The translations under genes and the position numbers were made by a program. Shown piece by piece: positions 1,949 to 61,058 of a stretch of 64,000 nucleotides of DNA (positions within the stretch are counted from its first letter, which is position 1; each line of letters starts with the position of its first letter). The stretch comes from Patescibacteria group bacterium (GTDB lineage Bacteria; Patescibacteriota; UBA1384; CAJBMM01): positions 85,520 to 149,519 of the forward strand of contig JBAZWC010000002.1 of assembly GCA_041660565.1 (NCBI GenBank). The letters run 5' to 3'. Under the pieces are notes generated by a model that did no database searches, was not told where the DNA came from, and worked only from the letters and a program-made list of their open reading frames with translations.

Positions 1949-1981
1949 GCCATTCCGGATTTAATCCGGAATCTATATAAA
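1949..1981 (+). repeat. R1 hairpin repeat copy a (GCCATTCCGGAT-TTAA-ATCCGGAAT-CTATATAA)
   Basis: Perfect 9-bp palindrome ATTCCGGAT/ATCCGGAAT followed by CTATATAA. Same architecture at 9 other sites. Followed by a second palindrome CCTTCTCCTCGAGAGGAGAAGG (1986-2007). Confidence 0.8.
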
Positions 1982-2118
1982 AGTCCCTTCTCCTCGAGAG
2001 GAGAAGGCGTCCGGAGGGCGGATGAGGAGGACAATCAATTGTTAAATGATAAATAAAGGAGTAAATTAAAGCTGAAATCACGGCCGTACATTCACAACCA
2101 GAAGGGTGGTGAGATAAG

Positions 2119-2562
2119 ATGCATTCTATGACTGCGTCCGATGCCGTCGAGAGAAGATGCGACCGTCCACGGTGCTTGCCCAAAAGCCAACCGATGATGA
2201 AACCACGATTTCTCATCAAAGGCATCGTTGCCAAATTCGACAAGGGTGTCAGAGTCTGGTGCAAAACCTACTTGCCCGAATTCCACGTGGCACCCGTCGG
2301 ACAAGCTGAGTGCGTACTTGATCAGGGATCGGTTTATCTGATCGGTCCTGTGGATGGAGTCGAACACGCCCGGTGTCAGTTAACCGACTATGGAGATGCC
2401 CTGCCTGGGTTCTACGCGGCGTACGCACTCGGCCGAAAGGGAGCGCTTTCTCCGATCATCAAGGGACCCGCGTACAACGTCCATGCGCCAGGTGCGGTTG
2501 TGCCACTTGCCGCTCTGCCAACCGCAGAACAAGTAGCGGAACATGCAAGACGATGCAGATGA
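2119..2562 (+). CDS. Hypothetical protein (GC-rich island A, gene 1)
   Basis: 147-aa ORF, RBS GGTGGTGAG 6 nt upstream of ATG. GC-rich codon usage distinct from backbone. No recognisable domain. Confidence 0.4.
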   Translation: MHSMTASDAVERRCDRPRCLPKSQPMMKPRFLIKGIVAKFDKGVRVWCKTYLPEFHVAPVGQAECVLDQGSVYLIGPVDGVEHARCQLTDYGDALPGFYAAYALGRKGALSPIIKGPAYNVHAPGAVVPLAALPTAEQVAEHARRCR

Positions 2563-2574
2563 GCAAGGAGCGGA

Positions 2575-2820
2575 TTGATGTCAGATACAAACGCGCAAGT
2601 AGTTGAACCACTATCCGATGTTGATCGACTGACCAAACTCGAGCAGGAGCAGGCGAGAATGCGTGATCAGTTTACTGCGCTAGAACGTCGAGTGAGCCAG
2701 CTCGCCACCGAGAACGAACGGCTTAACCGACGAACACTGCCGATGCAGACGTTTGGCGGCCCACCGAATGATGGCGGCGGCCTATTGGACGACACCCTAG
2801 ACGGTATGCCACCCTTGTAA
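2575..2820 (+). CDS. Small coiled-coil protein (island A, gene 2)
   Basis: 81 aa, heptad-like LTKLEQEQARMRDQFTALERRVSQLATENERLNRR. AAGGAG RBS just upstream of TTG/ATG. Adjacent to gene 1 with 12-nt spacing (operon-like). Confidence 0.5.
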   Translation: MMSDTNAQVVEPLSDVDRLTKLEQEQARMRDQFTALERRVSQLATENERLNRRTLPMQTFGGPPNDGGGLLDDTLDGMPPL

Positions 2821-2843
2821 GCACAATAAGGAGGTGATGCTAC

Positions 2844-3044
2844 TTGTCAGACAAGCCAAATCGCCCATGGCACCCGACGCGATTGTCCAAGGCAGGTCTA
2901 GAAACAACTCTCACGTCGAAGTGGAATGACGCCGGCAACCCGGACAGATGTGTCGGCGACTCAAGCGTACAAGGGCTCGGGCTTGGGGAGCTGATCAATG
3001 AGTTGGCACTCAGAGGTACAACCAGAACGCGACCCGCCAAGTAG
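2844..3044 (+). CDS. Hypothetical small protein (island A, gene 3)
   Basis: 66 aa, strong RBS AAGGAGGTG 7 nt upstream of TTG start. Confidence 0.45.
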   Translation: MSDKPNRPWHPTRLSKAGLETTLTSKWNDAGNPDRCVGDSSVQGLGLGELINELALRGTTRTRPAK

Positions 3045-3062
3045 CGCCATACGGAGGAGACA

Positions 3063-3266
3063 ATGCCGAACGACAGCCATGTTACTCCGCTTGCGCCTGA
3101 GGGAATCTCCGAGATTACCGATCAAGACGGCACTCTGACCGAAGAGCTTGATTCCCAAGCCCTGGAGTCGTTCGCCAGCAGGAGCAAGTACATCCACGAA
3201 CGGACCAAACTGCTAGCCGCGTACTATCGGGGCCACCCCTTCGAGGACTTTCGGATAACCGCATGA
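3063..3266 (+). CDS. Hypothetical small acidic protein (island A, gene 4)
   Basis: 67 aa, RBS GGAGGAG 4 nt before ATG. Confidence 0.5.
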   Translation: MPNDSHVTPLAPEGISEITDQDGTLTEELDSQALESFASRSKYIHERTKLLAAYYRGHPFEDFRITA

Positions 3267-3279
3267 CCACGCACAACAG

Positions 3280-3320
3280 GAGCCCCGGCAAACCAGCCGT
3301 GCGGCTCCTTCTTTTTATCT
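3280..3320 (+). terminator. Rho-independent terminator closing island A operon
   Basis: GGAGCC-loop-GGCTCC stem immediately followed by TTCTTTTTAT. Confidence 0.6.
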
Positions 3321-3334
3321 AACTCGCCACGAGC

Positions 3335-3367: not shown

Positions 3368-3408
3368 AAAAATTCAACGTTAATTGTTAACTGTTAATAG
3401 TTAATTGT

Positions 3409-5028: not shown

Positions 5029-5036
5029 ATTCCTTT

Positions 5037-5071
5037 GTTAATTGTTAATTGTTAATTGTTAATTGTTAATT
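5037..5071. repeat. Tandem heptamer (GTTAATT)x5
   Basis: gttaattgttaattgttaattgttaattgttaatt directly upstream of the recA RBS, overlapping the rodZ-like stop codon. Degenerate GTTAAT clusters also at 3380-3412 and 23490-23512. Confidence 0.8.
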
Positions 5072-5820
5072 GTTTTTTCAACCTTAATACTTCGAGTAAT
5101 TGAACGTAACTTCCCCGTTCTGGATTCTGCGGTGATGATGATGGTGTGAATACCCACTTCGCCCGCGTTAACTTCTTGCGCAAAATTGCCGTTTTCGTCC
5201 ACCGGAATCACTTGGCTACCCACCTTAACCGTTACTCCAGGCTCGGTTTTTCCCGATACCGTAAAGGTGCGAGAACTAACAACCGCTTGTTCAGACGGGC
5301 TGGAGATTGAAACCATTGGCACACCACTAAAAAAGTAAACTTGCGTGGCCAAATACCCAACAATCGCAATGACAGCCAGCGATATCACCGAAACCCAAAT
5401 CAATTTTGGGGTAATGGCAAATCGACTCAGCCGCAGGTTAGATTTATACGATAGGTTTGACAACGACGCTTGATTAGCCACACCGTACTCTTTTTGGAAC
5501 TGAGATAGTAGTTTAGTCGGATTAAGTTTCAAAAAACTGGCGTAATTCTGCAAAAATCCGGAAACATAAACCGAGTTAGGTAGCTGATAATACTTGGCGT
5601 TCTCTAGTGCTTCCAAATATTTAGCACGGATTAAAGTGCGCCGTTCGGCTTCTAACAGATCAATACCCATTTTTAAGCGCGCACGACGCAATTTTTCGCC
5701 CACAGTCAGCGGCACCTCAACAGATTTAGTTTTTTTACGTTTTGAAGCATTTTTTTTACTTAAAACAGCGTCTGAAGACGGTAGTTTAGGTAAAATTGAG
5801 GCGGATTTTACGGTTGTCAT
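5059..5820 (-). CDS. RodZ-like cytoskeleton protein (XRE-type HTH + TM segment + C-terminal domain)
   Basis: 253 aa. HTH LTVGEKLRRARLKMGIDLLEAERRTLIRAKYLEALE, one TM helix (LIWVSVISLAVIAIVGYL), beta-rich C-terminus. Confidence 0.65.
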   Translation of the reverse strand: MTTVKSASILPKLPSSDAVLSKKNASKRKKTKSVEVPLTVGEKLRRARLKMGIDLLEAERRTLIRAKYLEALENAKYYQLPNSVYVSGFLQNYASFLKLNPTKLLSQFQKEYGVANQASLSNLSYKSNLRLSRFAITPKLIWVSVISLAVIAIVGYLATQVYFFSGVPMVSISSPSEQAVVSSRTFTVSGKTEPGVTVKVGSQVIPVDENGNFAQEVNAGEVGIHTIIITAESRTGKLRSITRSIKVEKTINN

Positions 5821-5873
5821 TTGCCCCTATCATAACGCAACGGAGGCAAAAAACAAGAGGACGCATTTTCCCT

Positions 5874-5910
5874 GTCATTCCCGCGAAGGCGGGAATCCAG
5901 TCTATAAAAT
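5874..5910 (+). repeat. R1-related hairpin repeat copy c (TGTCATTCCCGCGAAGGCGGGAATCCAGTCTATAAAATAA)
   Basis: Same TGTCATTCC...GGAAT...CTATA(A) frame with ATTCCC-N8-GGGAAT stem. Followed at 5925-5960 by nested palindrome TCCCCGA..CCGCCAGCTGGCGG..TCGGGGA. Confidence 0.7.
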
Positions 5911-6142
5911 AATTTTCTTGCTGGATCCCCGAATATTCCGCCAGCTGGCGGAGTCGGGGATAACAAGGGGTTCAGTCACTCCGAGACTAACTCAGAGAGT
6001 GGGCTGTTCGTGTTAGCCCCCGGTTTCCGAAGCAGAGCGAGGTACCGCCTCTACAATGCTCGTGATACATTCCTCCATCTTCCATTCTCTCTATCCTCTA
6101 TCTTCTGATTTGTGTTACTATATTAGTGTACAAGGAGGGCTA

Positions 6143-9333: not shown

Positions 9334-9425
9334 TGTCATTCCGGCGCTATGAGTATGTCGATCCGAGTACTCTGGCCTCCGGCTCTACAAGCCGATAGGC
9401 TCGGAGAGAGAAATCTAATAGAATA
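9334..9425 (+). repeat. R1-related long hairpin repeat copy d
   Basis: TGTCATTCCGGCGC...extended imperfect palindrome (GAGTATGTCGATCCGAGTACTC; GGCTC..GAGCC)...GAGAGAGAAATCTAATAGAATA. Same start and end frame as other R1 copies. Confidence 0.6.
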
Positions 9426-9435
9426 TCACATGAAT

Positions 9436-9560
9436 AATTTTAAATTCTAAAGCATGAAACTTGCGAGCTCGGCTCGCACAGTTACGAAATTGCTGAAGCA
9501 ATTATAAATTTTAAAAAGGTTCCTTATTTAGTCATTTAAAATTGGCAACCATTCATTTGA
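9436..9560 (+). repeat. R2 composite AT-rich interspersed repeat, copy 1 (both modules)
   Basis: Contains module GCATGAAACTTGCGAGCTCGGCTCGCACAGTTACGAAATTGCTGAAGCAATT and module AAGGTTCCTTATTTAGTCATTTAAAATTGGCAACCATTCATTTGA. Both reappear (inverted) at 45561-45745. Confidence 0.75.
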
Positions 9561-9642
9561 TAATCCCGAGCGTTCCGCGAGTGATTTCGATGCTAAGCAT
9601 CTAATTAAAAATTAAAAAATTTATATTTCACTTTCACGGATT

Positions 9643-10182
9643 GTGAAGTTTTGCTTGATCTACTATACTAATTCTATGCCACCTAATCCGCAAGTTATCA
9701 CCACCACACGTGCTACAGCCGTACCGATGCTCTCATCTGAAACGGAGATTTTTCGCGTACATAAAAGTTACTTTTTCCTAATTGCCCCGATTATTTTTGT
9801 CTCCCTGGTTGGAATAGCACTGATTATCGCCATAAACGTGCTCTCAAATCAGATCCCAACAAACTTAATTAACTACTTACGTATTGGCATTATTGCGATG
9901 ATCGTCTTTATTGATGCTTTAATTTGGTTTGATTGGCTGACTACTATCTATACCTTAACCAATCGAAGAATACAGTACCGTTTTGGTGTTATTGGCGAAC
10001 AAACAAAAACTATTGCCCTAGATCAGATCACCGACAACAAGGTGGTTATCGGTATTTTTGGACGCATTTTTAACTATGGCGATGTGGTAATAGATGCCGC
10101 CCATATTAATAGCACTATTTCATTCAAAGGAATCGGCTCTGCTGAAAGCCGAAAAGATCAGATTGACAATGCAAAAGGGTAA
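9643..10182 (+). CDS. Membrane protein with bacterial PH (bPH_2) domain, divergent paralog of 8805..9314
   Basis: 179 aa. FRVHKSYFFLIAP motif, two TM helices, C-terminal PH-like region. Start may be internal (MPPNPQ). Confidence 0.6.
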   Translation: MKFCLIYYTNSMPPNPQVITTTRATAVPMLSSETEIFRVHKSYFFLIAPIIFVSLVGIALIIAINVLSNQIPTNLINYLRIGIIAMIVFIDALIWFDWLTTIYTLTNRRIQYRFGVIGEQTKTIALDQITDNKVVIGIFGRIFNYGDVVIDAAHINSTISFKGIGSAESRKDQIDNAKG

Positions 10183-10240
10183 ATTTTTAGGGCCGGCCGC
10201 GTAACAACGCAACCGACCCTACCTCCCCCTCGTCAAGTCA

Positions 10241-10339
10241 GACCCTCCTTAGGTCTTTGATATAGTCTCGAATCTCCGCCACTAGGACGATAACCAACGC
10301 GGGCAGAAACTCGAACCACACTCCGAGAATCTTCATCGT
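10241..10339 (-). CDS. Small (32-aa) single-TM membrane peptide, island B
   Basis: MKILGVWFEFLPALVIVLVAEIRDYIKDLRRV, with perfect RBS GAGGAGGG 7 nt upstream of ATG. Below the 60-aa cutoff of the ORF track. Immediately downstream of the 167-aa membrane protein, same strand. Confidence 0.45.
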
Positions 10340-10435
10340 GCTGCCCTCCTCAATCCTGAGAAAGACTACCGCCGAAGTGGGTGATGATGACCCACATCCC
10401 GATCACCCACTCCAGGGCTGCACGGAGCACCGATA

Positions 10436-10939
10436 TCATCTTGCCATCCTCCTTCTGACCTCTACCCTTCCCGGGTGACGAGGTCGCGGAGACATCCGAG
10501 CACGACCACCCTCGGTTGTGATCAGTCGGAGAGGGCGGTATTCCTGTCGTCGGCGGGCGCGCCTGACCTTGACGATCAGATACAGCCCCACCATGCCAAC
10601 CGCAACAGCGTAAAAGCGGTTGATGTTGAGCCAGTCGGTGATCTGTATTGTGCCCAGATCCTCGAAGGCTGTATTGTACAGCCAGATGGACGCCGGGCGA
10701 ATCGCCCATACCCACGCGGCCCAAAGCGAGCCGCAGCAGATGGCGATGATCCCACCCCAAACGGTGGAGTTAATCATCGCCCAGCGGTTGTCCGACAACC
10801 ACTGGCGGATCGAATCGCGGCAGATGTACGCCGACGCAATCGCCGAAGCGATTACCATCGCCGCGAGCCACATCACGGGGGAGTCTTGCCCCCACATCGC
10901 ACGATAAAACGCGTGCGACATGTTGTAATCGTCGTTCAT
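10436..10939 (-). CDS. Hypothetical integral membrane protein with Arg-rich C-terminal tail (GC-rich island B)
   Basis: 167 aa, 3-4 predicted TM helices, RBS GGAAGG upstream. GC-rich codon usage. No recognisable family. Confidence 0.5.
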   Translation of the reverse strand: MNDDYNMSHAFYRAMWGQDSPVMWLAAMVIASAIASAYICRDSIRQWLSDNRWAMINSTVWGGIIAICCGSLWAAWVWAIRPASIWLYNTAFEDLGTIQITDWLNINRFYAVAVGMVGLYLIVKVRRARRRQEYRPLRLITTEGGRARMSPRPRHPGRVEVRRRMAR

Positions 10940-11070
10940 GTCCGTTACCTTCCTCCCGCTTCATCGCGAGAAAAAATGAGACGAAACTGTGTTGTTCAAG
11001 AGCAATCTCAGCTACTTACAGCTCAGCATTATTACTTATATTATACACCCTACGTGTGTGTTTGTCAACC

Positions 11071-13197
11071 CTAAACCTCTATCACTACCGGTACCACCAT
11101 CGGGCGGCGCTGGGTTTTAGTATACAGAAATTCGCCCAGTTTTTCCCGAATATCGTTTTTGAATAAGTTTGCATCTAGCGCACGAGTCTCGGTATGTCTG
11201 GAAAAGTGCTTTTTCACTTCGGCTCGGGCAGCATGCACCAAATCTTCATTTTCACGCATATAAATGAATCCACGTGAAATGATATCGGGCGATGTTACCA
11301 TCTTGCCGGTGTTGTGATCTAGCGTAACAATTACCACAAAGATACCGTCTTCGGCCATCACGCGACGATCACGCAACACAATATTACCCACGTCACCGAT
11401 ACCTAAACCATCTACCATTACGTAACCGGCAGGCACACGCTCTTCGCTAACTCGTCCCACACCGCCGGAGAACTCTAGTACCTGACCATTATCACAGATC
11501 AGTACGTTTTCGGCCGGAATGCCCAAACTTTGCCCCAGTTGCCCGTGCATCACCAATTTATGGCGTTCGCCATGAATTGGCACCAAATGTTTTGGTTGCA
11601 CTAGCGAGAGCATTAGTTTTAAGTCTTCTTGGTAGGCGTGGCCGGAACTATGGATGTCAATCATCTTGTTATAAATAACTTTAGCACCCTGTCTAAGCAG
11701 GTTATCCATGACAGATGAGATTGATTTCTCGTTACCCGGAATTGGTGATGTGGCAAGCACAATCGTATCACCTTTTTTGACCCGTACTTGACGATGTTCA
11801 CCGGTTGAAATACGGTACAATCCCGACATTTCTTCGCCCTGTGCGCCGGTTGAGATAATACAAATCTTGTCATCTGGGTATTTACCGATGTCTCTAATAT
11901 CAATCAGCGTATCCGCTGGCAATTTGATTGCGTCAATCGATAGCGCGGCGTCCACATTATCCACCATACTACGTCCAACCAGCGCTACTTTGCGTCCGGT
12001 TTTGGCCGAAGCGTTTAGCACTTGCTGAATACGTGAGATAAGCGAGGCAAACATTGCTACCATAATGCGCCCGTTGGTGTGATTTTCAAAAATATCTACC
12101 AAGTTTTTTTCGATTTCGCGTTCGGAAATTGAGTGACCTTGTTTATCAATGTTAGTCGATTCCGAAAACAACGCCAACGGCTGAGTAGCCGATAGTTGAG
12201 CGATACGACGCAAGTCGGTTGGTCGCCCGTCGGATGGAGTATGATCTAACTTCCAGTCGGTACAGTACATTAACATACCTTCTGGGGTAAAGACCGCTAG
12301 ACCCATTGCGTCTGGAATAGAGTGCGCCAAGCGGAATGATTCCACTTTGAACACGCCGAATTGCAACACGTCAACGCCAATTTGAATAACGTTAACCGCC
12401 ACTTTACCAACCAAACCAAACTCTTCCAGTCGTTTTTCCACTAGTTTTGCGGTTAGAGGTGAGGTAAATATCGGCGGATTACCCAGTTTGCCAATCAAAT
12501 AAGGCACGGCACCAATGTGATCCAAGTGACCGTGAGTAATTACTACGCCGCGAATTTTATCTTTGCGTTCTTCTAAGTACGAGACATCCGGGATGACATA
12601 GTCGATACCCAACATCGCCTCGTCTGGGAACATCAAACCCATATCAATAATCATGATGTCATTACCATATTCGATGGCGGTCATATTTTTACCGATTTCT
12701 TCCACACCACCCAACGGGATAACGCGCAATTTTGGTGTGGCGGTCTGGCTGGACATTGGCTGAGTTGGAACTGCAGCGTGTCCGCTATCGCCGTTATGAA
12801 TTAAAGCTTTACCGGTAAAGAAGTCATCGATGCTTTTTTTCTCACGTCGGTTACGCGTATTTCGACGGGCAGGACGACTGGTTCTGGTGTCATCAGCTTT
12901 ATGAGCCGGTGTTTGAGTTGGGCGGGTTGTAGTTGGACGTTGAATGTTAGTTCTTTCTGGAGCACGATACTCCGAAACCGGCTGCCGCGAAATTGCTGCA
13001 ACCATGTCTGTGGCTGGCTTTGGCATCTGGCCATTACCGCCTTTGGTTAAATTTGATAATACTGATTCCGCTGACGGAAATTTTGAGGCCGGTTTTTGGG
13101 CTTCCTCGGATTGGCGTTTGATTCTTTCGATATCAAATGCCGGCTGGCTACCTTGTGCAGCCATAGGTTGATTGTTGTTTGGTGTTTCTTCCACCAT
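11071..13197 (-). CDS. rnj: Ribonuclease J (metallo-beta-lactamase/beta-CASP RNase) with ~190-aa low-complexity N-terminal extension
   Basis: HGHLDHIGAVPYL motif, beta-CASP and C-terminal domain. Start chosen at ATG 13197 (RBS GAAAGGAAC) rather than track start 13233. Confidence 0.9.
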   Translation of the reverse strand: MVEETPNNNQPMAAQGSQPAFDIERIKRQSEEAQKPASKFPSAESVLSNLTKGGNGQMPKPATDMVAAISRQPVSEYRAPERTNIQRPTTTRPTQTPAHKADDTRTSRPARRNTRNRREKKSIDDFFTGKALIHNGDSGHAAVPTQPMSSQTATPKLRVIPLGGVEEIGKNMTAIEYGNDIMIIDMGLMFPDEAMLGIDYVIPDVSYLEERKDKIRGVVITHGHLDHIGAVPYLIGKLGNPPIFTSPLTAKLVEKRLEEFGLVGKVAVNVIQIGVDVLQFGVFKVESFRLAHSIPDAMGLAVFTPEGMLMYCTDWKLDHTPSDGRPTDLRRIAQLSATQPLALFSESTNIDKQGHSISEREIEKNLVDIFENHTNGRIMVAMFASLISRIQQVLNASAKTGRKVALVGRSMVDNVDAALSIDAIKLPADTLIDIRDIGKYPDDKICIISTGAQGEEMSGLYRISTGEHRQVRVKKGDTIVLATSPIPGNEKSISSVMDNLLRQGAKVIYNKMIDIHSSGHAYQEDLKLMLSLVQPKHLVPIHGERHKLVMHGQLGQSLGIPAENVLICDNGQVLEFSGGVGRVSEERVPAGYVMVDGLGIGDVGNIVLRDRRVMAEDGIFVVIVTLDHNTGKMVTSPDIISRGFIYMRENEDLVHAARAEVKKHFSRHTETRALDANLFKNDIREKLGEFLYTKTQRRPMVVPVVIEV

Positions 13198-13238
13198 GTT
13201 CCTTTCTGTATTGAAACAAATAGTTCGTTTCAAAATTG

Positions 13239-13826
13239 TTATTTTTTGTCGATTAATTGATCGATTTTTTTAATTATTGCTGGGATGCGGCCAAAATCGT
13301 CCATTAGCGTCTGGCGCAAACCACCGTTATGCAGCGCCGCAGCCGGATGATAAAGGGGTAAAATGTATAAATCGCCACGATGCTTGGGTTGGCCATGAAC
13401 TTCGGATATCTTAAAACCGGGTAAAAAATAGTTCATTGAATGCCTGCCTAAACAGACGATTAACTTTGGATTGATAAATTTGATTTGTGCTTCTAAATAG
13501 GGCAAACATGCCGCTTTTTCTTCGTCTTCCGGATCACGATTTTCCGGTGGACGGCATTTGACAATGTTGGTAATAAAAACTTGGGTGCGATCTAAATTGA
13601 TACTGTTAAGCATTTCGTCTAAAAATTTGCCGGCGTTTCCCACAAACGGACGCCCCAACTTGTCTTCGTTAAATCCCGGGCCTTCGCCCACAAACAGAAT
13701 TTCTGATTGAGGATTTCCTTCACCCGGAACCGAATTTAATCGAGTGCGATGCAAGGGGCAACGCTCACAGACGCGGACTTGATTTGCCACATCGGACAGA
13801 TCATTAAACCCTAGTACATCGGGCAC
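13239..13826 (-). CDS. Uracil-DNA glycosylase, family 4
   Basis: 195 aa. CERCPLH…, GEGPGFNEDKLGRPFVGNAGKFLDEML and HPAAAL motifs typical of family-4 UDG. Confidence 0.85.
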   Translation of the reverse strand: MPDVLGFNDLSDVANQVRVCERCPLHRTRLNSVPGEGNPQSEILFVGEGPGFNEDKLGRPFVGNAGKFLDEMLNSINLDRTQVFITNIVKCRPPENRDPEDEEKAACLPYLEAQIKFINPKLIVCLGRHSMNYFLPGFKISEVHGQPKHRGDLYILPLYHPAAALHNGGLRQTLMDDFGRIPAIIKKIDQLIDKK

Positions 13827-13995
13827 AAGACTCCTTGAAATAGGTTAGTTGATGAAAAACATATTTTTAGTACAAAATATTTACGTTCTAAGTGTAGCAC
13901 ATAGGATTAATATTGTCAATAGCAAAGTGTTGCGTCAGAATCGAAAAAGTGATATAACATAGTTAGCTACATCATCCCGATGGAGGAGAAACGCG

Positions 13996-14268
13996 ATGAC
14001 GGATCAGGTAATTCATCACGCTGTAACGCCCTCAGAAGAGGAGCCGATCACGCTGACCAAGCGCGAGACCGAGATCCTTACGCTGGTAATCGAGGGCCGG
14101 TCAAGCCAGGAAGTAGCCGACATGCTGTACGTCTCCAAGCGGACAATCGACTTCCACTTGGCGAACATCTACGAAAAGTTGCAGGTGAGCAACCGCGTGC
14201 AGGCCTTCCGGCGAGCAGCTCGCCTAGGCTTGATCCCGTTCGACCCGCACTTCGGAGAATCCGAGTGA
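13996..14268 (+). CDS. LuxR/GerE-type HTH solo transcriptional regulator (GC-rich island C)
   Basis: 90 aa. LTKRETEILTLVIEGRSSQEVADMLYVSKRTIDFHLANIYEKLQVSNRVQA is a canonical GerE/LuxR C-terminal HTH. RBS GGAGGAG upstream. Promoter-like TTGCGT-17-TATAAC at about 13935-13965. Confidence 0.8.
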   Translation: MTDQVIHHAVTPSEEEPITLTKRETEILTLVIEGRSSQEVADMLYVSKRTIDFHLANIYEKLQVSNRVQAFRRAARLGLIPFDPHFGESE

Positions 14269-14370
14269 CGACCCAGCCCAGTTTACGCGCCCGCGACAAA
14301 CCACCGTCATCGGGCGCCTTCTTTTTGCAGACACTTGACCCCGTCAGAGGTAATCGTCTCTAACGGGGTT

Positions 14371-14400
14371 GACATTACTCACCTAATCGCGTATTATAAT
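14371..14400 (+). promoter_or_regulatory. Near-consensus sigma70 promoter (TTGACA-17-TATTAT/TATAAT)
   Basis: ttgacattactcacctaatcgcgtattataat has a perfect -35 hexamer, 17-bp spacer and -10 TATTAT overlapping TATAAT. No ORF with a plausible RBS follows. Confidence 0.6.
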
Positions 14401-14404
14401 GGAT

Positions 14405-14690
14405 GTGCGAGGAATGGAGCACGCGCACAGTCGCACTGTTCGAGTTGCCACCCCGCTTAGCGGGGTAATCGGGACGTCAGCGGGACGCCCAGCGTCCTTA
14501 GCGTTCCACCATTTCGCCTACCTCGTCGGCCGGGGGGGAGAGGCAGGCGAAACGCCGGGTTGACGCGGGACTGTTTGGTACCCCCTTCCGGTCCCGCTCC
14601 CCGTCGCAATCATACCGCTCCTTTTCGGGAGCGAACGTCTCACCCGGGTGCCAACAGTGTTGTTGGTGCCCGGTTTTCTTTTATCTAAAA
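14405..14690 (+). ncRNA. Candidate structured non-coding RNA (~285 nt, GC-rich), class unknown
   Basis: Lies between the consensus promoter and an intrinsic terminator. Multiple strong local hairpins (CCCCGC-UUAG-GCGGGG, GGACGC-CCAG-GCGUCC, GCGGGAC...GUCCCGC, GCUCC-UUUUC-GGGAGC). No convincing ORF. Next gene is on the opposite strand. Confidence 0.4.
14648..14690 (+). terminator. Rho-independent terminator of the candidate ncRNA
   Basis: CCCGGGUGCCAACA-GUG-UUGUUGGUGCCCGG stem followed by UUUUCUUUUAU. Confidence 0.6.
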
Positions 14691-14710
14691 TTCCAATTTA
14701 TCCAATTTGC

Positions 14711-15598
14711 CTAATTAAGCCAATTTGAACTGTTTTTTATCACTCCGGCCGTCGTAACAGTACCACTTTTTATTCTGACCAAAATGTATTTCAACGCTAG
14801 CCAAAACCCCCAAAACTGCTCCCACCGCCGATGGACTAAAGCGTTAACTACGTGAAACGGCATCCAAAATAAATGCACCAGCAACATGGGCAAGTTGTCT
14901 ATCGCCCGCCAGGTAAAAAGATACGCACCCTTCCAGCCATGGGCTTTTTTTATTAATGGCGTTGCCACCATCGAAGTAGTTGATTCATGATGGTGAATAC
15001 AGCGGCTTTTTGGCACAAATATCGATTTCCAACCTTTTTTCCAAGCCCGAAAACACAAATCGGCATCTTCCCAATAAAACGGCCGAAAAATTGGTGAAAA
15101 TCCACCTAAATCTAAAAACTTTTGCCGATTAAAAGCGCCGGCGCCACCACTAACGTAGAAAGTGTTTATCGGATCGCTAAATTTACGGTCAGGATACATC
15201 TCAAACACCGGCCGATGGCGCAACAAGCCCCGTTTCCACTCTGCCACCGTTCCCCCATCGTCGTATTCATGATCACCAGCAACGACACGCTGATACGCGC
15301 CAACCGCAAAAACTTTGTCATCCTCTAATTCTTTATATAACGGACTGAAAAAATCACCCTCGGTTTGAATATCGGTATTCAGCAACACCACAATGTCTGT
15401 TTTGGTCATTTTCACCGCGCGGTTATAACCATCGCCAAAGCCGTAATTCTGATCAAATGGCACCCATTTGGCGATTTTATGATCTTTAACCACCTGCGCA
15501 CTGTTATCTTTTGAGCCGTTATCAACCACAATCACTTCAGTTGAAATGCTCGCCAGACTAGCCGATTTTATCACCGACGCCAAATTCCGGCGCAGCAA
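14711..15598 (-). CDS. Glycosyltransferase family 2
   Basis: 295 aa. VIVVDNGSKDNS (DxD-context) and GGAGAFNRQKF motifs of GT-A fold GT2 enzymes. Confidence 0.8.
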   Translation of the reverse strand: MLRRNLASVIKSASLASISTEVIVVDNGSKDNSAQVVKDHKIAKWVPFDQNYGFGDGYNRAVKMTKTDIVVLLNTDIQTEGDFFSPLYKELEDDKVFAVGAYQRVVAGDHEYDDGGTVAEWKRGLLRHRPVFEMYPDRKFSDPINTFYVSGGAGAFNRQKFLDLGGFSPIFRPFYWEDADLCFRAWKKGWKSIFVPKSRCIHHHESTTSMVATPLIKKAHGWKGAYLFTWRAIDNLPMLLVHLFWMPFHVVNALVHRRWEQFWGFWLALKYILVRIKSGTVTTAGVIKNSSNWLN

Positions 15599-15746
15599 CC
15601 CCTCGCCATTGTAGTTTAAAATAATTACAGAAGCAGTTTTTATATCGTTTCTTTCTGCACTCAGATTACCAAAATCTGATCCGTTATGATAGGTTGGACT
15701 AGCCCTGAGGCGATATTTGTTGTATAACTAGACCAGGAGATAACAA

Positions 15747-16820
15747 ATGTCACTAAATATTGGGATTGTTGGACTGCCAAACGTGGGAAAATCGACGTTG
15801 TTTAATGCGCTGACCAAATCCGGCCAAGCCGCGGCAGAGAACTACCCATTTTGCACCATCGAGCCAAACGTGGGCATTGTGCCGGTGCCAGATGATCGCC
15901 TGCAAAAACTGGCAGATGTAGTTAAAACCAACAAACTAATCCCCGCCACCGTGCAATTTGTCGATATTGCCGGGCTGGTGGCCGGCGCGCACAAGGGTGA
16001 GGGTTTGGGCAATCAGTTTTTAGCCCACATTCGCGAAACCGATGCTATCGCCATGGTGGTGCGCTGTTTTACCGATGAAAATGTGATCCACGTGACGGGC
16101 ACTGTTGACCCCAAATCTGACATCGAAACCATCAAACTAGAACTAATCTTAGCCGACCTGCAAACGGTGACAAAAATGCGCGGCGTGGCAGAAACCAAAG
16201 CCAAAGGCCACGACAAAGAGGCAATGGTTCTGTTTACCGCGTTAAATAAAGTTGAACACACCTTAAATCAAGAACAACTTGCGAGCCTTGCCGATCTTGG
16301 CGATGACGAGCGAAGCGCTATCAATTCGATTCAATTATTAACCAACAAACCGTTTCTTTACATTGGCAATGTTAGCGAAGCAGATGTGAACAAAGATCCG
16401 AGTGATTTTGGCCTACCAAGTGACGCAATTTTGATCTCGGCCAAAGTGGAATCGGAGTTAGTATCGCTTACTGACAGCGAACAAGCGGAATACCTAGCTG
16501 CACTTGGACTAAATGAATCTGGTTTAACCCGATTAATCCATCGCGCCTACAAAACTTTGGGCTTGCAATACTTTTTCACCGCTGGGCCAAAGGAAGTGCG
16601 GGCATGGACTATTCACCAAGGCTCAACCGCGCCAATTGCCGCCGGCGTTATTCATACCGATTTTATTAAAGGATTTATTCGCGCCGAAGTAATGTCTTAT
16701 GATGATTTAATTACTCTGGGATCTGAACTAAAAGTAAAAGAAGCCGGCAAATTGCGCATTGAGGGCAAGGATTACGTGATGCGCGAAGGCGACGTGGTAC
16801 ATTTTAGGGTAACGAGCTAG
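15747..16820 (+). CDS. ychF: Ribosome-binding ATPase YchF (Obg-family GTPase)
   Basis: 357 aa. G1 GIVGLPNVGKSTLFNALT, FVDIAGLV, C-terminal TGS domain. Confidence 0.92.
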   Translation: MSLNIGIVGLPNVGKSTLFNALTKSGQAAAENYPFCTIEPNVGIVPVPDDRLQKLADVVKTNKLIPATVQFVDIAGLVAGAHKGEGLGNQFLAHIRETDAIAMVVRCFTDENVIHVTGTVDPKSDIETIKLELILADLQTVTKMRGVAETKAKGHDKEAMVLFTALNKVEHTLNQEQLASLADLGDDERSAINSIQLLTNKPFLYIGNVSEADVNKDPSDFGLPSDAILISAKVESELVSLTDSEQAEYLAALGLNESGLTRLIHRAYKTLGLQYFFTAGPKEVRAWTIHQGSTAPIAAGVIHTDFIKGFIRAEVMSYDDLITLGSELKVKEAGKLRIEGKDYVMREGDVVHFRVTS

Positions 16821-16827
16821 TATTTAT

Positions 16828-16860
16828 TGTCATTCCGGATTTAATCCGGAATCTATATAA
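16828..16860 (+). repeat. R1 hairpin repeat copy e (TGTCATTCCGGATTTAATCCGGAATCTATATAA)
   Basis: Core identical to copy a (which starts GCCATTCC). 8 nt after ychF stop, at the left edge of GC-rich island D. Confidence 0.85.
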
Positions 16861-17026
16861 TTAAATTCTTTTTATAGCATGAACTCCGGGTCATGCCCTT
16901 AAGTGACAGCTGCTGACGTTTGACATATCAAATAATAAGCGTAAAGTAGTTTTTAATGCCTCAATCGCTCGAATGAGGAGCACTTTTCACATACATGTCG
17001 GCTCGGTAGGCCAAAAGGAGGCCAGC

Positions 17027-17254
17027 GTGGCGATACAGGAAGACGGAATCCCCAACGACCAAGACTGTATCCCCGCACCCGGGGAGAAAGCCGTGCGTCT
17101 GCTACTCGAGGACAATGCCAACCTACGCAGGGTGAACGAGGAGTTACGCGCGGCCAATGCAGACCTTCGCAGCAAGCTGATGGCAGCAACAGGACGGATT
17201 ACTGCCCTGACGCGCCGGACAGATGTTCAACCCGCCACCCCAACGCGCACGTGA
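17027..17254 (+). CDS. Small coiled-coil protein (island D, gene 1)
   Basis: Track ORF 16973..17254. A more likely start is GTG 17027 after RBS AAAGGAGG. Heptad-rich LEDNANLRRVNEELRAANADLRSKL. Upstream promoter-like TTGACA-16-TAAAGT at about 16920-16950. Confidence 0.45.
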   Translation: MAIQEDGIPNDQDCIPAPGEKAVRLLLEDNANLRRVNEELRAANADLRSKLMAATGRITALTRRTDVQPATPTRT

Positions 17255-17266
17255 AGGAGAGAACGC

Positions 17267-18004
17267 ATGTGCCCACCGCATTCCGTTGAGGAAGCGTCGA
17301 CTGACCCATACGACACAATCGACCTTCTTGAACAAGACATCGAGAGTCGCGACCGAACCATTGCTGATCTGCGCCGAGAGAACGCCCAGCTGTTGACCCG
17401 CGTCAACGAGCTTGGTCAGCAGAAAGCCACAGCTGAGACGCTAGCTGAGGATCTCCAGCGAGACATAGCGCTGTTGCGCCGTGAGATCCAGCGCTTGCAA
17501 TGTCAGGACACAACCACGCAGCCTGAAGATGCACCGCCAGCAACGCCATGGTTTGCGAACATCAGTTTCAGCACGAACGCATGGGAAGTGCTTGCCGTGC
17601 GTGCACCGGCGGTTGCCCGCGAGTTCAGCGAGAACTACGTCTCCACAGAGCATCTGTTGCTCGCGATACTCCGAGTTCCCGATTGTACTGCGGCGAAGTT
17701 TCTGGACTATCGCGGTGTCACCGAGCGCATCATTGCCGAGGTAAACCGGCAAGCGATGCGGGGAGATGATCGAACAACGGCTGAACCGCAACTAACCCCG
17801 CGCTGCAAGCGATGTGTCGAATTAGCGATCAACGAAGCTGCGGGCGACACTTTCGGCACCGGATACATGCTGCTCGGTTTGATCCAAGACGGTGAAGGTC
17901 TGGCGGCTCGTGTCTTGACCAAGATCTGCGGCGTGACACTCGAATCGGCTCGACGGGAGCTTCAAGCGCTGCGCCAACCCAATCCCACCCCAACGCCTGC
18001 GTAA
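17267..18004 (+). CDS. Coiled-coil protein with C-terminal double Clp_N (Clp amino-terminal R) domain (island D, gene 2)
   Basis: 245 aa. N-terminal coiled coil (DLRRENAQLLTRVNELGQQKATAETLAEDLQRDIALLRREIQRLQ), then two Clp_N-like repeats (FSTNAWEVLAVRAPAVAREFSENYVSTEHLLLAILR ... ELAINEAAGDTFGTGYMLLGLIQDGEGLAARVL). RBS GAAGGAGA. Confidence 0.6.
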   Translation: MCPPHSVEEASTDPYDTIDLLEQDIESRDRTIADLRRENAQLLTRVNELGQQKATAETLAEDLQRDIALLRREIQRLQCQDTTTQPEDAPPATPWFANISFSTNAWEVLAVRAPAVAREFSENYVSTEHLLLAILRVPDCTAAKFLDYRGVTERIIAEVNRQAMRGDDRTTAEPQLTPRCKRCVELAINEAAGDTFGTGYMLLGLIQDGEGLAARVLTKICGVTLESARRELQALRQPNPTPTPA

Positions 18005-18017
18005 AGGAAAGAGCGCC

Positions 18018-18326
18018 ATGCCGACAGACGATAGCCCCGAAGCGAGGATCGAGAGTCAGCGAACGTACATCCAGCAACTCGAGAGAGAGAAGGCTCAGCT
18101 GTCGCAAGAGCTCGCCGACGTCAGGCAGGAGATCCAGACCACCAGGAACTCGCTGCGGGAAGCACAGGAAACGCTGGCGGGGGTCGCGCCGGAAAAGCTC
18201 GAGCTTCTCGGACAGCTGCGAACCGAGCAGACGCGAAACCGCCAACTGGAGGACCGATTGGGTCTGCTCCGGTCGGTTAGCGACCAACTTTCCGCCCTAT
18301 CCGCGGAATACCCTCCGATCGAGTAG
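18018..18326 (+). CDS. Small coiled-coil protein (island D, gene 3)
   Basis: 102 aa, continuous heptads (IQQLEREKAQLSQELADVRQEIQTTRNSLREAQETL). RBS AAAGGAAAGAG. Confidence 0.5.
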   Translation: MPTDDSPEARIESQRTYIQQLEREKAQLSQELADVRQEIQTTRNSLREAQETLAGVAPEKLELLGQLRTEQTRNRQLEDRLGLLRSVSDQLSALSAEYPPIE

Positions 18327-20328: not shown

Positions 20329-20868
20329 TTGATGCAGTCAAAGGTGTATAATGGAGTCGATATGCTTATTGCCGCATCTAAATTACAAAACGTGCCGTTA
20401 ATCGGCATGGAATCTCACAGTAGGCTCGGTACCATTAAACAGTGCATTTTTCACCCCGATACCGGACAGCTTTTAGCGTTCGCAATTAACCTAAATTCCG
20501 TTATTCCAAGAGTGAACTACATCTCTTTTAACGATATTGTCTCTTTTGAACAACACGCGGTGGTAGGAGATAGAGAATGTCTTTTTGATTTGGATGACTA
20601 CACCAAGGTCAAAAACATCTTGAGCCAAAAACGGCCTATTTTGGGTCAGAAAGTGCTCACCCGTGACCAGAAATATCTCGGAGACGTGACGGACGTGATG
20701 ATTGAAAAAACCACCGGCCAGATGGTGGAGTTTGAAGTACATCATCTTTTTTCAAAACGAATCTTCCGTTTTAATGATATCGACCAAATTACCACCAAAG
20801 GCGTAGTGGTAAAAAATGATTTGGAAATGGTCAAATCTGGGGTAGCGGTTGAGACAAACACCGCATGA
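20329..20868 (+). CDS. PRC-barrel domain protein (two PRC repeats)
   Basis: About 170-aa beta-rich protein with two LGTIKQCIFHPDTGQLLAF-type PRC motifs. Real start likely at ATG 20362 (MLIAASKL). Confidence 0.45.
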   Translation: MMQSKVYNGVDMLIAASKLQNVPLIGMESHSRLGTIKQCIFHPDTGQLLAFAINLNSVIPRVNYISFNDIVSFEQHAVVGDRECLFDLDDYTKVKNILSQKRPILGQKVLTRDQKYLGDVTDVMIEKTTGQMVEFEVHHLFSKRIFRFNDIDQITTKGVVVKNDLEMVKSGVAVETNTA

Positions 20869-20927
20869 CACGACATGGTTGTTAATTCGAGCATGTCAGA
20901 GAAATCTTAAAAATGAATCCGACCCAA

Positions 20928-25329: not shown

Positions 25330-25420
25330 ATTTCACACTCCTCTTATTACCCTAAACATTAGGGTGTTATGAAACGGTTGTCAATAGGGGTGATAATAGA
25401 GTGCTGCTATAAGAAGAACA

Positions 25421-34718: not shown

Positions 34719-34799
34719 TTTTGCCTTTCTGCGCCTTAAAGACGCGGCCTTGGCCCGACAGTTCGGACCGTTGGTAAAGAACTAGCCAAAACGATACCA
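34719..34799 (-). promoter_or_regulatory. Second duplicated leader family, copy 2
   Basis: See 33918-33996. Confidence 0.65.
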
Positions 34800-45560: not shown

Positions 45561-45745
45561 GTACGAATTATAAATTTTCAATTTTTAATTTCAAATGAAT
45601 GGTTGCCAATTTTAAATGACTAAATAAGGAACCTTTTTAAAATTTAATCATTCGGTACTTATTCATTTAAAATTTATAATTGCTTCAGCAATTTCGTAAC
45701 TGTGCGAGCCGTGCTCGCAAGTTACATGCTTTAAAATTTAAAATT
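45561..45745 (-). repeat. R2 composite AT-rich interspersed repeat, full-length copy, inverted orientation
   Basis: Reverse complement contains both R2 modules seen at 9436-9560 and 20928-21050 (…AATGAATGGTTGCCAATTTTAAATGACTAAATAAGGAACC…TGCTTCAGCAATTTCGTAACTGTGCGAGCCGTGCTCGCAAGTT…). Confidence 0.8.
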
Positions 45746-45755
45746 AAGGGAAAAC

Positions 45756-48566: not shown

Positions 48567-48636
48567 TGTCATTTCGACTCCCTCCGGGCAGAGCCTCGAG
48601 CATTGTCTCGAGAGTGGAGAAATCTATAATAATAAG
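48567..48636 (+). repeat. R1-related repeat copy i (TGTCATTTCGACTCC ... GGAGAAATCTATAATAATAAG)
   Basis: Same head and tail as copies f and h. Directly followed by an inverted R2 copy. Confidence 0.65.
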
Positions 48637-48768
48637 AATTATAAATTTTCAATTTTTAATTTTTAATGAAAGGTAACCAATTTTAAATGACTAAATAAGG
48701 TACTTTTTTAAAATTTAATCATTCGGCACTTATTCATTTAAAATTTAACATTTAGAATTTAAAATTAT
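48637..48768 (-). repeat. R2 AT-rich interspersed repeat, copy 5, inverted orientation
   Basis: TATAAATTTTCAATTTTTAATTTTTAATGAAAGGTAACCAATTTTAAATGACTAAATAAGGTAC…ATCATTCGGCACTTATTCATTTAAAATTT. Confidence 0.75.
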
Positions 48769-48831
48769 TGGAGTGGAAACTCACGAGGTCAAAATGACAA
48801 TTTAACCACACTAAATTAAAAAGGAGATCTA

Positions 48832-59553: not shown

Positions 59554-59585
59554 CAAGCACCCGCTTTGGAGCAACCATCAGCTGG

Positions 59586-60188
59586 TCAGGAGAAGAGTGC
59601 CAGCACCACTCCAGAGACGAACAACCATTGTCCGAGCAACGCCTCCGGGGTCAGTCTGACGTAGTACTCTATCAGCCACTCGTCTACCGTCTTGGAGTAA
59701 TAGCCCAGCACCACGTCTCCAGGTATTGCCCGGACGAGATAACGCCGCCCGTTTGCGGTGCCGAACAGTCGGTAGAAAGTTGGCGAAAACGGCCCGAGCC
59801 AGGTTAGCCCGCAGCCATTCGCCTCGCCTGTGCTGTCGTGCACGAAGTGCATGATCAGGCAAGTGAATGCCAGCAACCCCCAGAACAACTGGTTTCCGTG
59901 CAGCCACTGAGCGATCAGCACCGTGACAGCCACCACCACAGGGACGAACAGGATGGGGAAGTGGAACAGATCGCGATGGTGTTTGATCTTCACTCCCATT
60001 CTCTTGAGCAAGGCGCCGACCACAATGTCGGCGTCTGGCAGCACCGAAAACGCCATGCCCGCCAGATAGCACCAGTAGCTAACGTGGACATCGAGTCCCT
60101 TTGCCAGCAGGTACGTCAGCCACAACCCTACACCAAAGTCATGCAAGGCGGCGTTGGTCAGCCCAAACAACCTCGTCGTGGGCGACAT
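59586..60188 (-). CDS. Membrane-bound metal-dependent hydrolase, YdjM/DUF457-like (GC-rich island H)
   Basis: 200 aa, 4-5 TM helices. HHRDLFHFP and HDSTG motifs. GC-rich codon usage. Confidence 0.6.
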   Translation of the reverse strand: MSPTTRLFGLTNAALHDFGVGLWLTYLLAKGLDVHVSYWCYLAGMAFSVLPDADIVVGALLKRMGVKIKHHRDLFHFPILFVPVVVAVTVLIAQWLHGNQLFWGLLAFTCLIMHFVHDSTGEANGCGLTWLGPFSPTFYRLFGTANGRRYLVRAIPGDVVLGYYSKTVDEWLIEYYVRLTPEALLGQWLFVSGVVLALFS

Positions 60189-60198
60189 TGTCCCCCTC

Positions 60199-60942
60199 CT
60201 AGGGTATGGGCGAGATGATTCCCGACGCGGAATAGCGTTTGACGCGCTCGATCTCGCCTTCGAGCACCTTGGACAGTCTGACGTTGTAGCCGTATCCCAT
60301 CAGAGACGGGATACCAACGACTTCACGTGTCACGCTGGTTAGACCACCAATCCAGTGTCGTGCGGTGCGGAATACCCGAGGAACATGGTAATCCGTCGTC
60401 ACCAGCACAACATGTCCGATAGTCTCGTATCGCAGGTAATCTGCCAGAACCTGAAGTTGAGTACCGGTGTTTGCCGACCCTGTTGGGCCGCAATCGAGGT
60501 AAGTGATCGCGTCGGCGGGCATACCAGCCGAGACAGCGATGCCGCGACTCTCGATCTCCTCTTCGGTCTCGCCATCGATCACGAGGGTGGGGAGACAGGA
60601 CGCAGCTTCGAGTACCATTCTGACAGCGGCACGAATTCGATCCGCGTTCTCTTCGGTGTCAGCGTGCTCACGCGGGCCGGTCTTTGGCCCACAGTAGGTG
60701 CCGGTCAACATCACCACGTGAGTGGTGTTGTCCGGGACAGTCAATGGTTGTCGCGCCGCATTGTAGCACGCGACGTACTCGTCAATCAGGCCGCCCCGGT
60801 CCGGGTATCGGCAGCGCAGAACATCCCATTCCCGATCAGTCACATGCATCACTCGGTTTTGATCCAATGACGTTTCCCCCTTTGGGATCGATTTGTTAAG
60901 GAAGCGTGTATTACAGATCGCACACCTGCGACGATAAACCAT
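60199..60942 (-). CDS. DUF218 (YdcF/ElyC/SanA-like) domain protein (GC-rich island H)
   Basis: 247 aa. HVVMLTGTYCG… and HVVLVTTDYHVPRVFRTARHWIGGL match the DUF218 pattern (xVTSxYHMxRA). Confidence 0.55.
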   Translation of the reverse strand: MVYRRRCAICNTRFLNKSIPKGETSLDQNRVMHVTDREWDVLRCRYPDRGGLIDEYVACYNAARQPLTVPDNTTHVVMLTGTYCGPKTGPREHADTEENADRIRAAVRMVLEAASCLPTLVIDGETEEEIESRGIAVSAGMPADAITYLDCGPTGSANTGTQLQVLADYLRYETIGHVVLVTTDYHVPRVFRTARHWIGGLTSVTREVVGIPSLMGYGYNVRLSKVLEGEIERVKRYSASGIISPIP

Positions 60943-61025
60943 ATCTTACTTTATTTTAGCCCCCTTGTCAACCAATTCGGAAGATTGGGGATGGAAAATA
61001 GATGATAGATTTTGGTAATTTTCCT

Positions 61026-61058
61026 TTGTCATTCCGGGCTTGACCCGGAATCTATATA
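61026..61058 (+). repeat. R1 hairpin repeat copy j (TGTCATTCCGGGCTTGACCCGGAATCTATATAA)
   Basis: Near-identical to copy b. Right edge of GC-rich island H. Confidence 0.8.

Follow-up and report, generated by a model that had tools for sequence, protein, structure and literature searches.

What are the ten hairpin repeats that are scattered over a 64-kb stretch of DNA in a Patescibacteria metagenome-assembled genome (MAG), and why do they all read in the same direction? The stretch, hereafter the window, covers positions 85,520–149,519 of contig JBAZWC010000002.1. It is 46% GC and its genes include those for FtsK, RNase J, GroEL, H+-pyrophosphatase and YchF. The repeats, termed R1, probably represent (with a probability of about 80%) a lineage-specific expansion of the TGTC/CGTC-tagged palindromic repeats, i.e. 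the CGTC repetitive extragenic palindromes (CGTC REPs), the dRS3/NTS (Neisseria Transformation Sequence) repeats and the Ssn-related motifs (SRM). The literature already describes this family as well as its partner enzyme, and the additions made here are the Patescibacteria host and a subtype with the tail CTATATAA. The main value is thus one of correct annotation: the units are to be labeled SRM or TGTC-tagged REP, and not promoter, terminator or new element. The CTATATAA-tailed family is abundant in Patescibacteria (Candidate Phyla Radiation, CPR) and in many uncultured lineages.

The R1 units of the window

The first-pass annotation listed ten copies of R1 and viewed them as one family. All ten are present, intergenic and on the plus strand, and an eleventh, partial copy was absent from that list. 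The units are given below, with bit scores from a covariance model built on 70 units and z values for folding.

1949–1980, plus strand: copy 1, short unit GCCATTCCGGATTTAATCCGGAATCTATATAA, tag mutated (GCC for GTC), 48.4 bits
3335–3367, plus strand: copy 2, short unit: tag TGTC, stem of 8 bp ATTCCGGG/CCCGGAAT, 5-nt loop and tail CTATATAA, 52.9 bits; DNA hairpin of −8.5 kcal/mol, z −4.34
5873–5907, plus strand: copy 3, left arm, TGTCATTCCCGCGAAGGCGGGAATCCAG followed by TCTATAA, z −4.36
5921–5965, minus strand: inverted partner arm of copy 3, TGTTATCCCCGA...TCGGGGATCCAG on the minus strand, degenerate tag; forms a doublet with copy 3
9334–9423, plus strand: copy 4, long variant with head TGTCATTCCGG, insert of about 70 nt and tail GAGAGAAATCTAATAGAA, z −1.17
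16828–16860, plus strand: copy 5, short unit 7 nt past the ychF stop codon, 54.9 bits, z −4.21
20867–20920, plus strand: eleventh, partial copy, interior and tail of the long subfamily (..CAGAGAAATCTTAAAAATGAATCC), 72% identical to 33153–33221
33144–33220, plus strand: copy 6, long variant TGTCATTTCGAC...TTGGAGAAATCT with an extension, GAAYCCCTTCCAGT, common to copy 8, z −0.85
34018–34050, plus strand: copy 7, short unit whose stem has one mismatch (ATTCGGAAT), 50.3 bits
38281–38436, plus strand: copy 8, whole 156-nt element with inverted ends TGTCATTTCGAC ... GTCGAGATGACA; left arm 38281–38350, right arm 38355–38436
48567–48638, plus strand: copy 9, left arm, long variant, z −0.76; possible inverted head at 48770–48800
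61027–61059, plus strand: copy 10, short unit, 55.7 bits, z −4.46

The window units display the head TGTCATT(C/T)C and the tail G(G/A)AATCT. The left edge is sharp at (Y)TGTCATT and the 5′ flanks of the copies are unrelated. R1 is a single, though heterogeneous, family with constant unpaired flanks around a variable palindrome, as the first-pass annotation had viewed it. The shared head holds for nine of the ten units, which have TGTC; the exception is copy 1, where the head reads GCCATT instead of GTCATT. Chance does not account for the shared head and tail, as the pattern GTCATTYC-N8-38-GRAATCY has seven matches, all on the plus strand, versus 0.06 expected from 100 dinucleotide shuffles. 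The remaining matches to GTCATTYC (1758, 27639 and 37391 on the plus strand, 2930 and 39450 on the minus strand) are all in coding sequence without hairpin or tail, and are thus attributed to chance.

Two groups can be distinguished. The short canonical group has six copies (1949, 3335, 5873, 16828, 34018 and 61027), all recovered by the covariance model on the plus strand. When folded as single-stranded DNA (ssDNA), copies 2, 3, 5 and 10 form a stem of 8–9 bp that starts with A-T-T and closes with a 3–5 nt loop (z about −4.3); the palindrome of copy 5 recurs in copies 1 and 7, in the latter with its one mismatch. The short units other than copy 3 are ATTCCGG-N7-CCGGAAT or similar, and a C directly follows the palindrome in all six. 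The 3′ tail trinucleotide is CCA in copy 3 only and CTA in the others. The long-variant group has four copies (9334, 33144, 38281 and 48567) with the head TGTCATT(T/C)C, the tail GAGAAATCT and inserts of 30–70 nt. Membership in R1 is least certain for copy 4. The entire copy 8 folds as DNA at −36 kcal/mol (z −4.83) with a 12-bp terminal stem.

An inverted partner arm on the minus strand accompanies at least two and probably three of the ten copies (5921–5965, 38355–38436 and possibly 48770–48800). An unrelated AT-rich repeat (48633–48769) is nested between the left arm of copy 9 and its possible inverted head. The head of the eleventh copy is degenerate, having been lost at the junction with the stop codon of the upstream gene, and the AT-rich tail of copy 7 overlaps the terminator T-run of the adjacent minus-strand gene. 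Copy 10 shows a 34-nt identity with units in other genomes, e.g. L013 (Daviesbacteria) and L037.

Relation to published repeats

The CGTC-tagged REPs (Di Nocera, De Gregorio & Rocco 2013, BMC Genomics 14:522, PMC3733652) have a tag that is often TGTC (CCTC is allowed) and comprise families CGTC-1 to CGTC-4, of which CGTC-1 is the Neisseria dRS3. Their stems are 8–9 bp, the first two positions being complementary A/T pairs, the loops are 4–5 nt and the 3-nt unpaired tail has the consensus CCA. Most occur as inverted (HH) dimers. These repeats are found in five phyla (Proteobacteria, Chlorobi, Bacteroidetes, Spirochaetes and Thermotogae), unevenly among relatives, and are described as having ‘no dedicated transposase’ (PMC3733652). 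R1 is similar in its TGTC tag (nine of ten units, with TGCC in copy 1), in the 8–9 bp A/T-starting stems and small loops of the short units, in the presence of inverted dimers and in a spread over several phyla that is uneven among relatives. It differs in that most window units have the tail CTA and not CCA, and in that dimers are a minority in the window (2–3 of ten units). Among the matches listed from other genomes, 40% of units have an inverted partner. Long copies 4, 6 and 9, taken alone, fall outside the CGTC-REP stem and loop definition.

With dRS3 and the Neisseria intergenic mosaic elements (NIMEs) (Parkhill 2000; Bentley 2007, PMC1797815), R1 has in common inverted units with AT-richer spacers and the alternation of GC-rich units with GC-poor spacers, and copy 3 is exactly ATTCCC-N8-GGGAAT. 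However, the window has no long arrays and mostly ATTCCGG stems, which are outside the dRS3 consensus. The window family is a relative of dRS3 but, strictly taken, a different repeat.

Chenal et al. (2025, Nat Commun 16:2388, PMC11893778) described the same type of oriented motif as the NTS, CGTCATTCCCGCGMAVGCGGGAATCYRG, and generalized it to the SRM. These motifs flank ssnA, which encodes a 94 amino acid single-domain GIY-YIG protein (cd10448). SsnA, which binds the hairpin, cuts a few nt upstream of the tag, and both activities are limited to forward-strand ssDNA; it is inactive on the reverse strand, on double-stranded DNA and on RNA, and RNA is not bound. Cleavage is governed by the three bases 5′ of the palindrome and binding by the C 3′ of it. 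Nuclease activity has been shown for the Neisseria and Wolbachia homologues, and in N. meningitidis SsnA restricts transformation by NTS-bearing DNA. The NTS-ssnA-NTS arrangement was likened to an insertion sequence (IS). The strict SRM pattern, HGTCWYN(0-2)YYVSBRHN(0-5)WNVSBRGN(0-2)RNCYNB, was hand-built on the basis of 29 genomes that represent four phyla (PMC11893778).

The R1 units and the NTS/SRM are alike in the (C/T)GTC tag, the ATTCC.../...GGAAT stem and the C after the palindrome, and both are directional and intergenic. The cleavage-controlling GTC is upstream of the palindrome in nine of the ten window units and the C relevant to binding follows all six short palindromes. Since copy 1 has GCC at the cleavage-controlling bases, it may not be cleavable. 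Copy 3 matches the NTS in full save for the first base (T for C), and it alone agrees with dRS3 (ATTCCC-N8-GGGAAT) as well as with the strict SRM pattern. R1 is unlike the published motifs in its host, a Patescibacteria MAG, in its CTATATAA tail where these have CYRG, and in consisting mostly of solo, co-oriented units where the published motifs cluster around genes in both orientations. The window has no ssn gene. The long-insert subfamily is absent from PMC11893778.

Distribution and covariation in other genomes

A scan of 185,579 species genomes with GTCATTCC-N5-35-GGAATCTATATAA gave at least 120 loci; the unit counts that follow come from the matches listed. The hosts include Patescibacteria (Roizman-, Davies-, Collier-, Berkelbacteria and others), Bacteroidota (Polaribacter, Psychroserpens and Marivirga), Gammaproteobacteria, Planctomycetia, Omnitrophota, Ignavibacteriales, Treponema and others. 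Over 70 distinct units, pairing at the three free stem positions is 97%, and there are 67 double changes versus 21.5 in shuffles; the signal collapses in slid-register controls. These compensatory stem substitutions indicate that the hairpin structure is under selection. In 82% of 124 units a T precedes GTC.

An inverted partner (G[GA]ATGAC) is present within 60 nt downstream of the tail in 49 of the 124 units and upstream in only two. The polarity of the doublet is thus fixed, with the tags outward and the AT-rich tail inside. Target-site duplications, for which the first-pass annotation proposed a check, were not found: of 35 doublets, 31 lack any direct repeat at their flanks and the other four have one of 1 nt. 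A classical MITE (miniature transposable element with inverted repeats) derived from a DDE transposase was therefore rejected, as the inverted ends are present but the target-site duplication is not. There is hardly any carriage by phages, with four motif matches in 2.9 million viral contigs.

Two relatives whose YchF is 70%–74% identical have no R1 copy in 20 kb. The L124 relative keeps the gene order FtsK ... RNase J - UDG ... YchF ... S6 - SSB - S18 - EF-P. The absence of copies from these relatives indicates that the expansion of R1 is recent and lineage-specific. The repeats also fragment metagenome assemblies. A contig from an independent short-read assembly of the same organism (L001, Logan SRR18595301), which is identical to window positions 9586–16856, ends right after copy 5, and many contigs with a GIY-YIG gene (see below) end 300–430 nt upstream of the gene.

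The associated GIY-YIG nuclease gene

Clustering of open reading frames (ORFs) over the listed loci shows that the commonest family is a GIY-YIG nuclease of about 90–110 amino acids, with 13 genes, of which seven are directly bracketed by units. Selection bias was removed by fetching GIY-YIG loci through protein homology alone (at least 8000 homologues, Pfam PF01541); five of five such loci have the gene (about 97 amino acids) bracketed by units. Loci bracketed by units of the same subtype as in the window include L136, L152/L075, L135, L138 and L147, and in addition L005, L080 and L090. The layout is a left arm, 10–15 nt, the gene from ATG to stop codon, 4–20 nt, and an inverted right arm. 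In L135 (Sulfuricaulis), GTCATTCCCGCGAAGGCGGGAATCCAG is followed by 12 nt, the ORF, 4 nt and CTGGATTCCCGCCTTCGCGGGAATGAC, which gives a perfect 27-bp inverted repeat around the gene. In L136 the left arm GTCATTCCCGACTTGATCGGGAATCTATATAA and the right arm GATTCCCGTTTTCACGGGAATGACA are each separated from the ORF by 15 nt. The L136 left arm has the 8-bp stem, the 5-nt CTTGA-type loop and the CTATATAA tail of window copies 2 and 10. Arms of this type indicate that the CTATATAA tail is the segment that extends from the left hairpin to the start codon of the nuclease gene.

The catalytic spacing of one member, P0121 (Y9, Y20 and E67; 97 amino acids), is that of N. meningitidis SsnA (Y6, Y17 and E64; 94 amino acids). 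The closest solved structures are UPF0213 proteins (PDB 1zg2 and 1ywl), SLX1 and UvrC. The Pfam assignment is PF01541, and the family is putatively of the cd10448 (Ssn) type. The arrangement of motif, single-domain GIY-YIG gene of about 95 amino acids and inverted motif, which resembles an IS, is also that of the published NTS/SRM loci.

Each unit has an unpaired (T)GTC tag, followed by a stem of 8–9 bp that starts with A-T-T, a short loop, a C that is obligatory after the stem, and an AT-rich tail. In the window, the solo units and the doublets without a gene may be non-autonomous derivatives of an ssn-bearing unit, on which an Ssn encoded elsewhere in the genome would act in trans. The TATATAA tail of the window units would be the stretch that precedes the ssn start codon. 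The co-orientation of the units on a C-rich strand (see below) may reflect a cleavable strand that arises, or can be tolerated, on one replication strand only.

Several points weigh against reading R1 as an Ssn-related family. No ssn or other GIY-YIG ORF is present in the 64-kb window. The strict SRM pattern matches copy 3 only (5873–5900), with 0.22 matches expected in shuffles; the other short units miss it by one stem-register position and have the tail CTA, not CYRG. The CCGG-type stems with 3–5 nt loops are the reason that nine of ten window units miss this pattern. Long copies 4, 6 and 9 alone do not fold significantly (z about −1) and their base stem is not predicted. The putative Ssn link of the long variants rests on the likeness of head and tail and on ATTTC-type arms that flank the GIY-YIG gene of Marivirga (L079). 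The replication-strand part of the interpretation is not supported once gene strand is controlled.

Could R1 instead belong to the REP/REPIN family mobilized by the REP-associated tyrosine transposase (RAYT), an IS200-like Y1 HUH enzyme, as in Pseudomonas and E. coli? The architecture is similar, i.e. tagged hairpins, inverted doublets and absence of target-site duplication, and four of the 120 listed loci (L010, L019, L034 and L086) contain RAYT-like genes. In L010 the flanking sequence, ATTCCACCTCTAAGGTGGAAT, shares the ATTCC/GGAAT stem base with R1. However, the tag of R1 is TGTC and not GTAG, the RAYT-like genes in all four loci are bordered by their own distinct hairpins and not by R1 units, and the genes that R1 does bracket are GIY-YIG genes. 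Nor is any RAYT flanked by CGTC units in the survey of Di Nocera et al. (PMC3733652). Membership in REP/REPIN-RAYT was therefore rejected and is very improbable. What the Ssn-related repeats have in common with REP/REPIN-RAYT and IS200/IS605 is a hairpin with a short unpaired tag in ssDNA, non-autonomous doublets, the absence of target-site duplication and possibly a tie to replication-fork ssDNA. They differ in fold (GIY-YIG versus HUH/Y1) and in tag, and Ssn is not known to carry out strand transfer (transposase activity).

The RAYT-like gene of L010 (Patescibacteria FK_Sedi_B_Bin.260) is at positions 1745–2422 and has ATTCCACCTCTAAGGTGGAAT, without a GTC tag, on both sides; GIY-YIG and tRNA genes are just upstream. 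GIY-YIG genes that have no bracketing hairpins (L108, L047, L049 and L010) directly adjoin tRNA genes in several CPR and other genomes.

Position of the units relative to genes

The units occur strictly between genes, frequently no more than 30 nt from where a gene ends, and their loops are often GNRA-like. They might act at the RNA level, as terminators or mRNA stabilizers, or as portable promoters with TATATAA as a −10 box and a 5′ stem-loop. The opposite strand reads TTATATA, hairpin, AATGACA, purine-rich tract and start codon, and Di Nocera et al. argue that many REPs function as RNA (PMC3733652). Yet a T-run follows the hairpin on neither strand, RNA is not bound by SsnA and the syntenic relatives have no units. 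Orientation is independent of the flanking genes as well: in the window the flanks are divergent for five copies, co-directional for 2 + 2 and convergent for one, and among the matches listed from other genomes they are (−,−) in 38, (+,+) in 25, (−,+) in 14 and (+,−) in eight cases. A sigma-70 promoter does not fit a distance between head and tail that is this long and this variable; the candidate TTGTCA ... TATATA was rejected with a spacing of 21 nt that varies. A primary role in RNA is thus improbable, although the units may have secondary effects on neighboring transcripts.

The copy-3 doublet (5858–5917) gives a weak cmscan match to RF02748, the Francisella small RNA FtrB (27.8 bits, E = 2.3), which is far under the gathering threshold and is the only Rfam match in the window at E ≤ 5. 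The FtrB model may contain a unit of the repeat family to which R1 belongs. The window has no Rfam family at the gathering threshold, no tRNA gene and no HIP1 (highly iterated palindrome) site.

Orientation and replication strand

The first-pass annotation stated that all copies read head to tail on the plus strand irrespective of gene strand. The independence from gene strand stands, as seen from the flanks given above. The uniformity holds for the tail-bearing units, all on the plus strand; the inverted partner arms of two or three copies are on the minus strand, and thus the claim is limited to the tail-bearing units. The two-sided probability of ten out of ten in the same orientation is about 0.002, and the eleventh, partial copy is also on the plus strand. 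A strand-specific role had been proposed from this. That orientation matters finds support in the cutting of the forward strand only by SsnA, which makes the orientation of the motif biochemically meaningful. A likeness to REP/BIME (bacterial interspersed mosaic element) or KOPS (FtsK-orienting polar sequence) bias, or a transposition mechanism with strand preference, remains a proposal.

The plus strand is C-rich, with a skew of −0.018 in plus-strand genes, −0.097 in minus-strand genes and −0.063 in intergenic sequence, and is also C-rich at the third codon positions of both gene sets. All forward units are on this strand. The leading strand is usually G-rich, thus the plus strand has the composition of a lagging strand. 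One possibility is that replication sets the orientation, in that a cleavable strand would be kept or inserted almost only on the C-rich strand, i.e. the leading-strand template, which is rarely single-stranded, and opposite units would be cut at the fork by Ssn. This is tentative and we consider it rather unlikely. Comparison of orientation with skew, as the first-pass annotation proposed, was made in about 100 other genomes (8-kb loci, among the matches listed). The forward unit is on the C-rich strand in 61 versus 37 cases (p = 0.02), but after balancing for gene strand the ratio is 29:25 and not significant. By word search, ‘leading strand’ is absent from PMC3733652 and PMC11893778 and ‘lagging’ is absent from PMC11893778; the replication-strand question is not addressed there.

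The loss of the skew association after balancing is consistent with an alternative in which the co-orientation reflects chance or local history without mechanistic meaning, the units being relics and their shared orientation the outcome of a few local duplications or recombinations. The sample is 10–11 units in a single 64-kb window. Solo units within one locus elsewhere have the same orientation in nine cases and different orientations in four, and three 20-kb regions around ssn genes have mostly inverted pairs and not co-oriented solo units. On the other hand, chance fits poorly with the probability of about 0.002 and with the eleventh copy. The units are of several distinct subtypes with unrelated flanks and thus do not derive from a single local duplication. 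The plus strand is C-rich in every sequence class and the nuclease is strand-specific. Chance or local history is a serious possibility, somewhat short of an even one.

Were replication to set the orientation, Ssn and the SRM would be tied to replication-fork ssDNA, as are IS200/IS605, and not to transformation alone. This would give a first handle on how SRM repeats spread or are purged, with Patescibacteria as a phylum where solo co-oriented units prevail. As Ssn acts on one strand of ssDNA, the genome-wide orientation of units could show whether fork ssDNA is its natural substrate.

GC-rich islands

Five GC-rich islands (54%–60% GC versus 46% overall) encode small proteins:

1981–3334: between copies 1 and 2
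10200–11070: about 700 nt from copy 4
16973–18326: adjoins copy 5
42168–43214: no copy at its borders
59586–60942: adjoins copy 10

The statement that copies sit exactly at island borders holds only in part: copies adjoin 1981–3334, 16973–18326 and 59586–60942, but not the other two. Copies 1 and 2 do bracket 1981–3334 (54% GC) as direct repeats, as had been noted; this is descriptive only and no mechanism is attached to it. The island ORFs next to copies have no integrase, transposase or nuclease domains. Most island proteins have no Pfam match; one has a Clp_N domain, and 59586–60942 carries YdjM and DUF218. The relatives L122 and L124 have different genes in the ychF-rpsF interval.

Other repeats and genes in the window

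A second, AT-rich repeat family is about 120–185 nt long, with the core GGTTCCTTATTTAGTCATTTAAAATTGGCAACCATTCATTTGA and internal inverted repeats. Its copies are 83%–100% identical and occur in both orientations:

9435–9560, plus strand: directly right of copy 4
20927–21055, plus strand: directly right of the partial copy at 20867
25417–25542, plus strand: AT-rich repeat
45562–45746, minus strand: AT-rich repeat
48633–48769, minus strand: directly right of the left arm of copy 9

Three of the five are thus next to long R1 variants, which is similar to the RS spacers of the Neisseria NIMEs. Intergenic tandem heptamers, (GTTAATT)n, are present at 3379–3408, beside copy 2, and at 5030–5075, upstream of the gene at 5059–5820. 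Heptamer repeats had raised the idea of cyanobacterial DNA, which was rejected given the lack of HIP1 sites.

The enolase gene (31815–33139, minus strand) is apparently split. The ORF at 32252–33139 encodes Enolase_N plus no more than the first third of the TIM barrel, and the overlapping ORF at 31815–32342 may carry the remainder. Either the gene is frameshifted or a pseudogene, or the assembly is in error.

A perfect 59-nt direct repeat (33938–33996 and 34741–34799) and a 98% identical 102-nt direct repeat (30752–30853 and 31619–31720) are found upstream of adjacent minus-strand genes, at 33262–33906 and 34091–34711 (no Pfam match) and at 30080–30754 and 30911–31621, respectively. These gene pairs resemble tandem paralogues whose leader regions are duplicated as well. 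The genes at 33262–33906 and 34091–34711 are separated by copies 6 and 7 of R1, and each ends with a similar GC-rich terminator hairpin.

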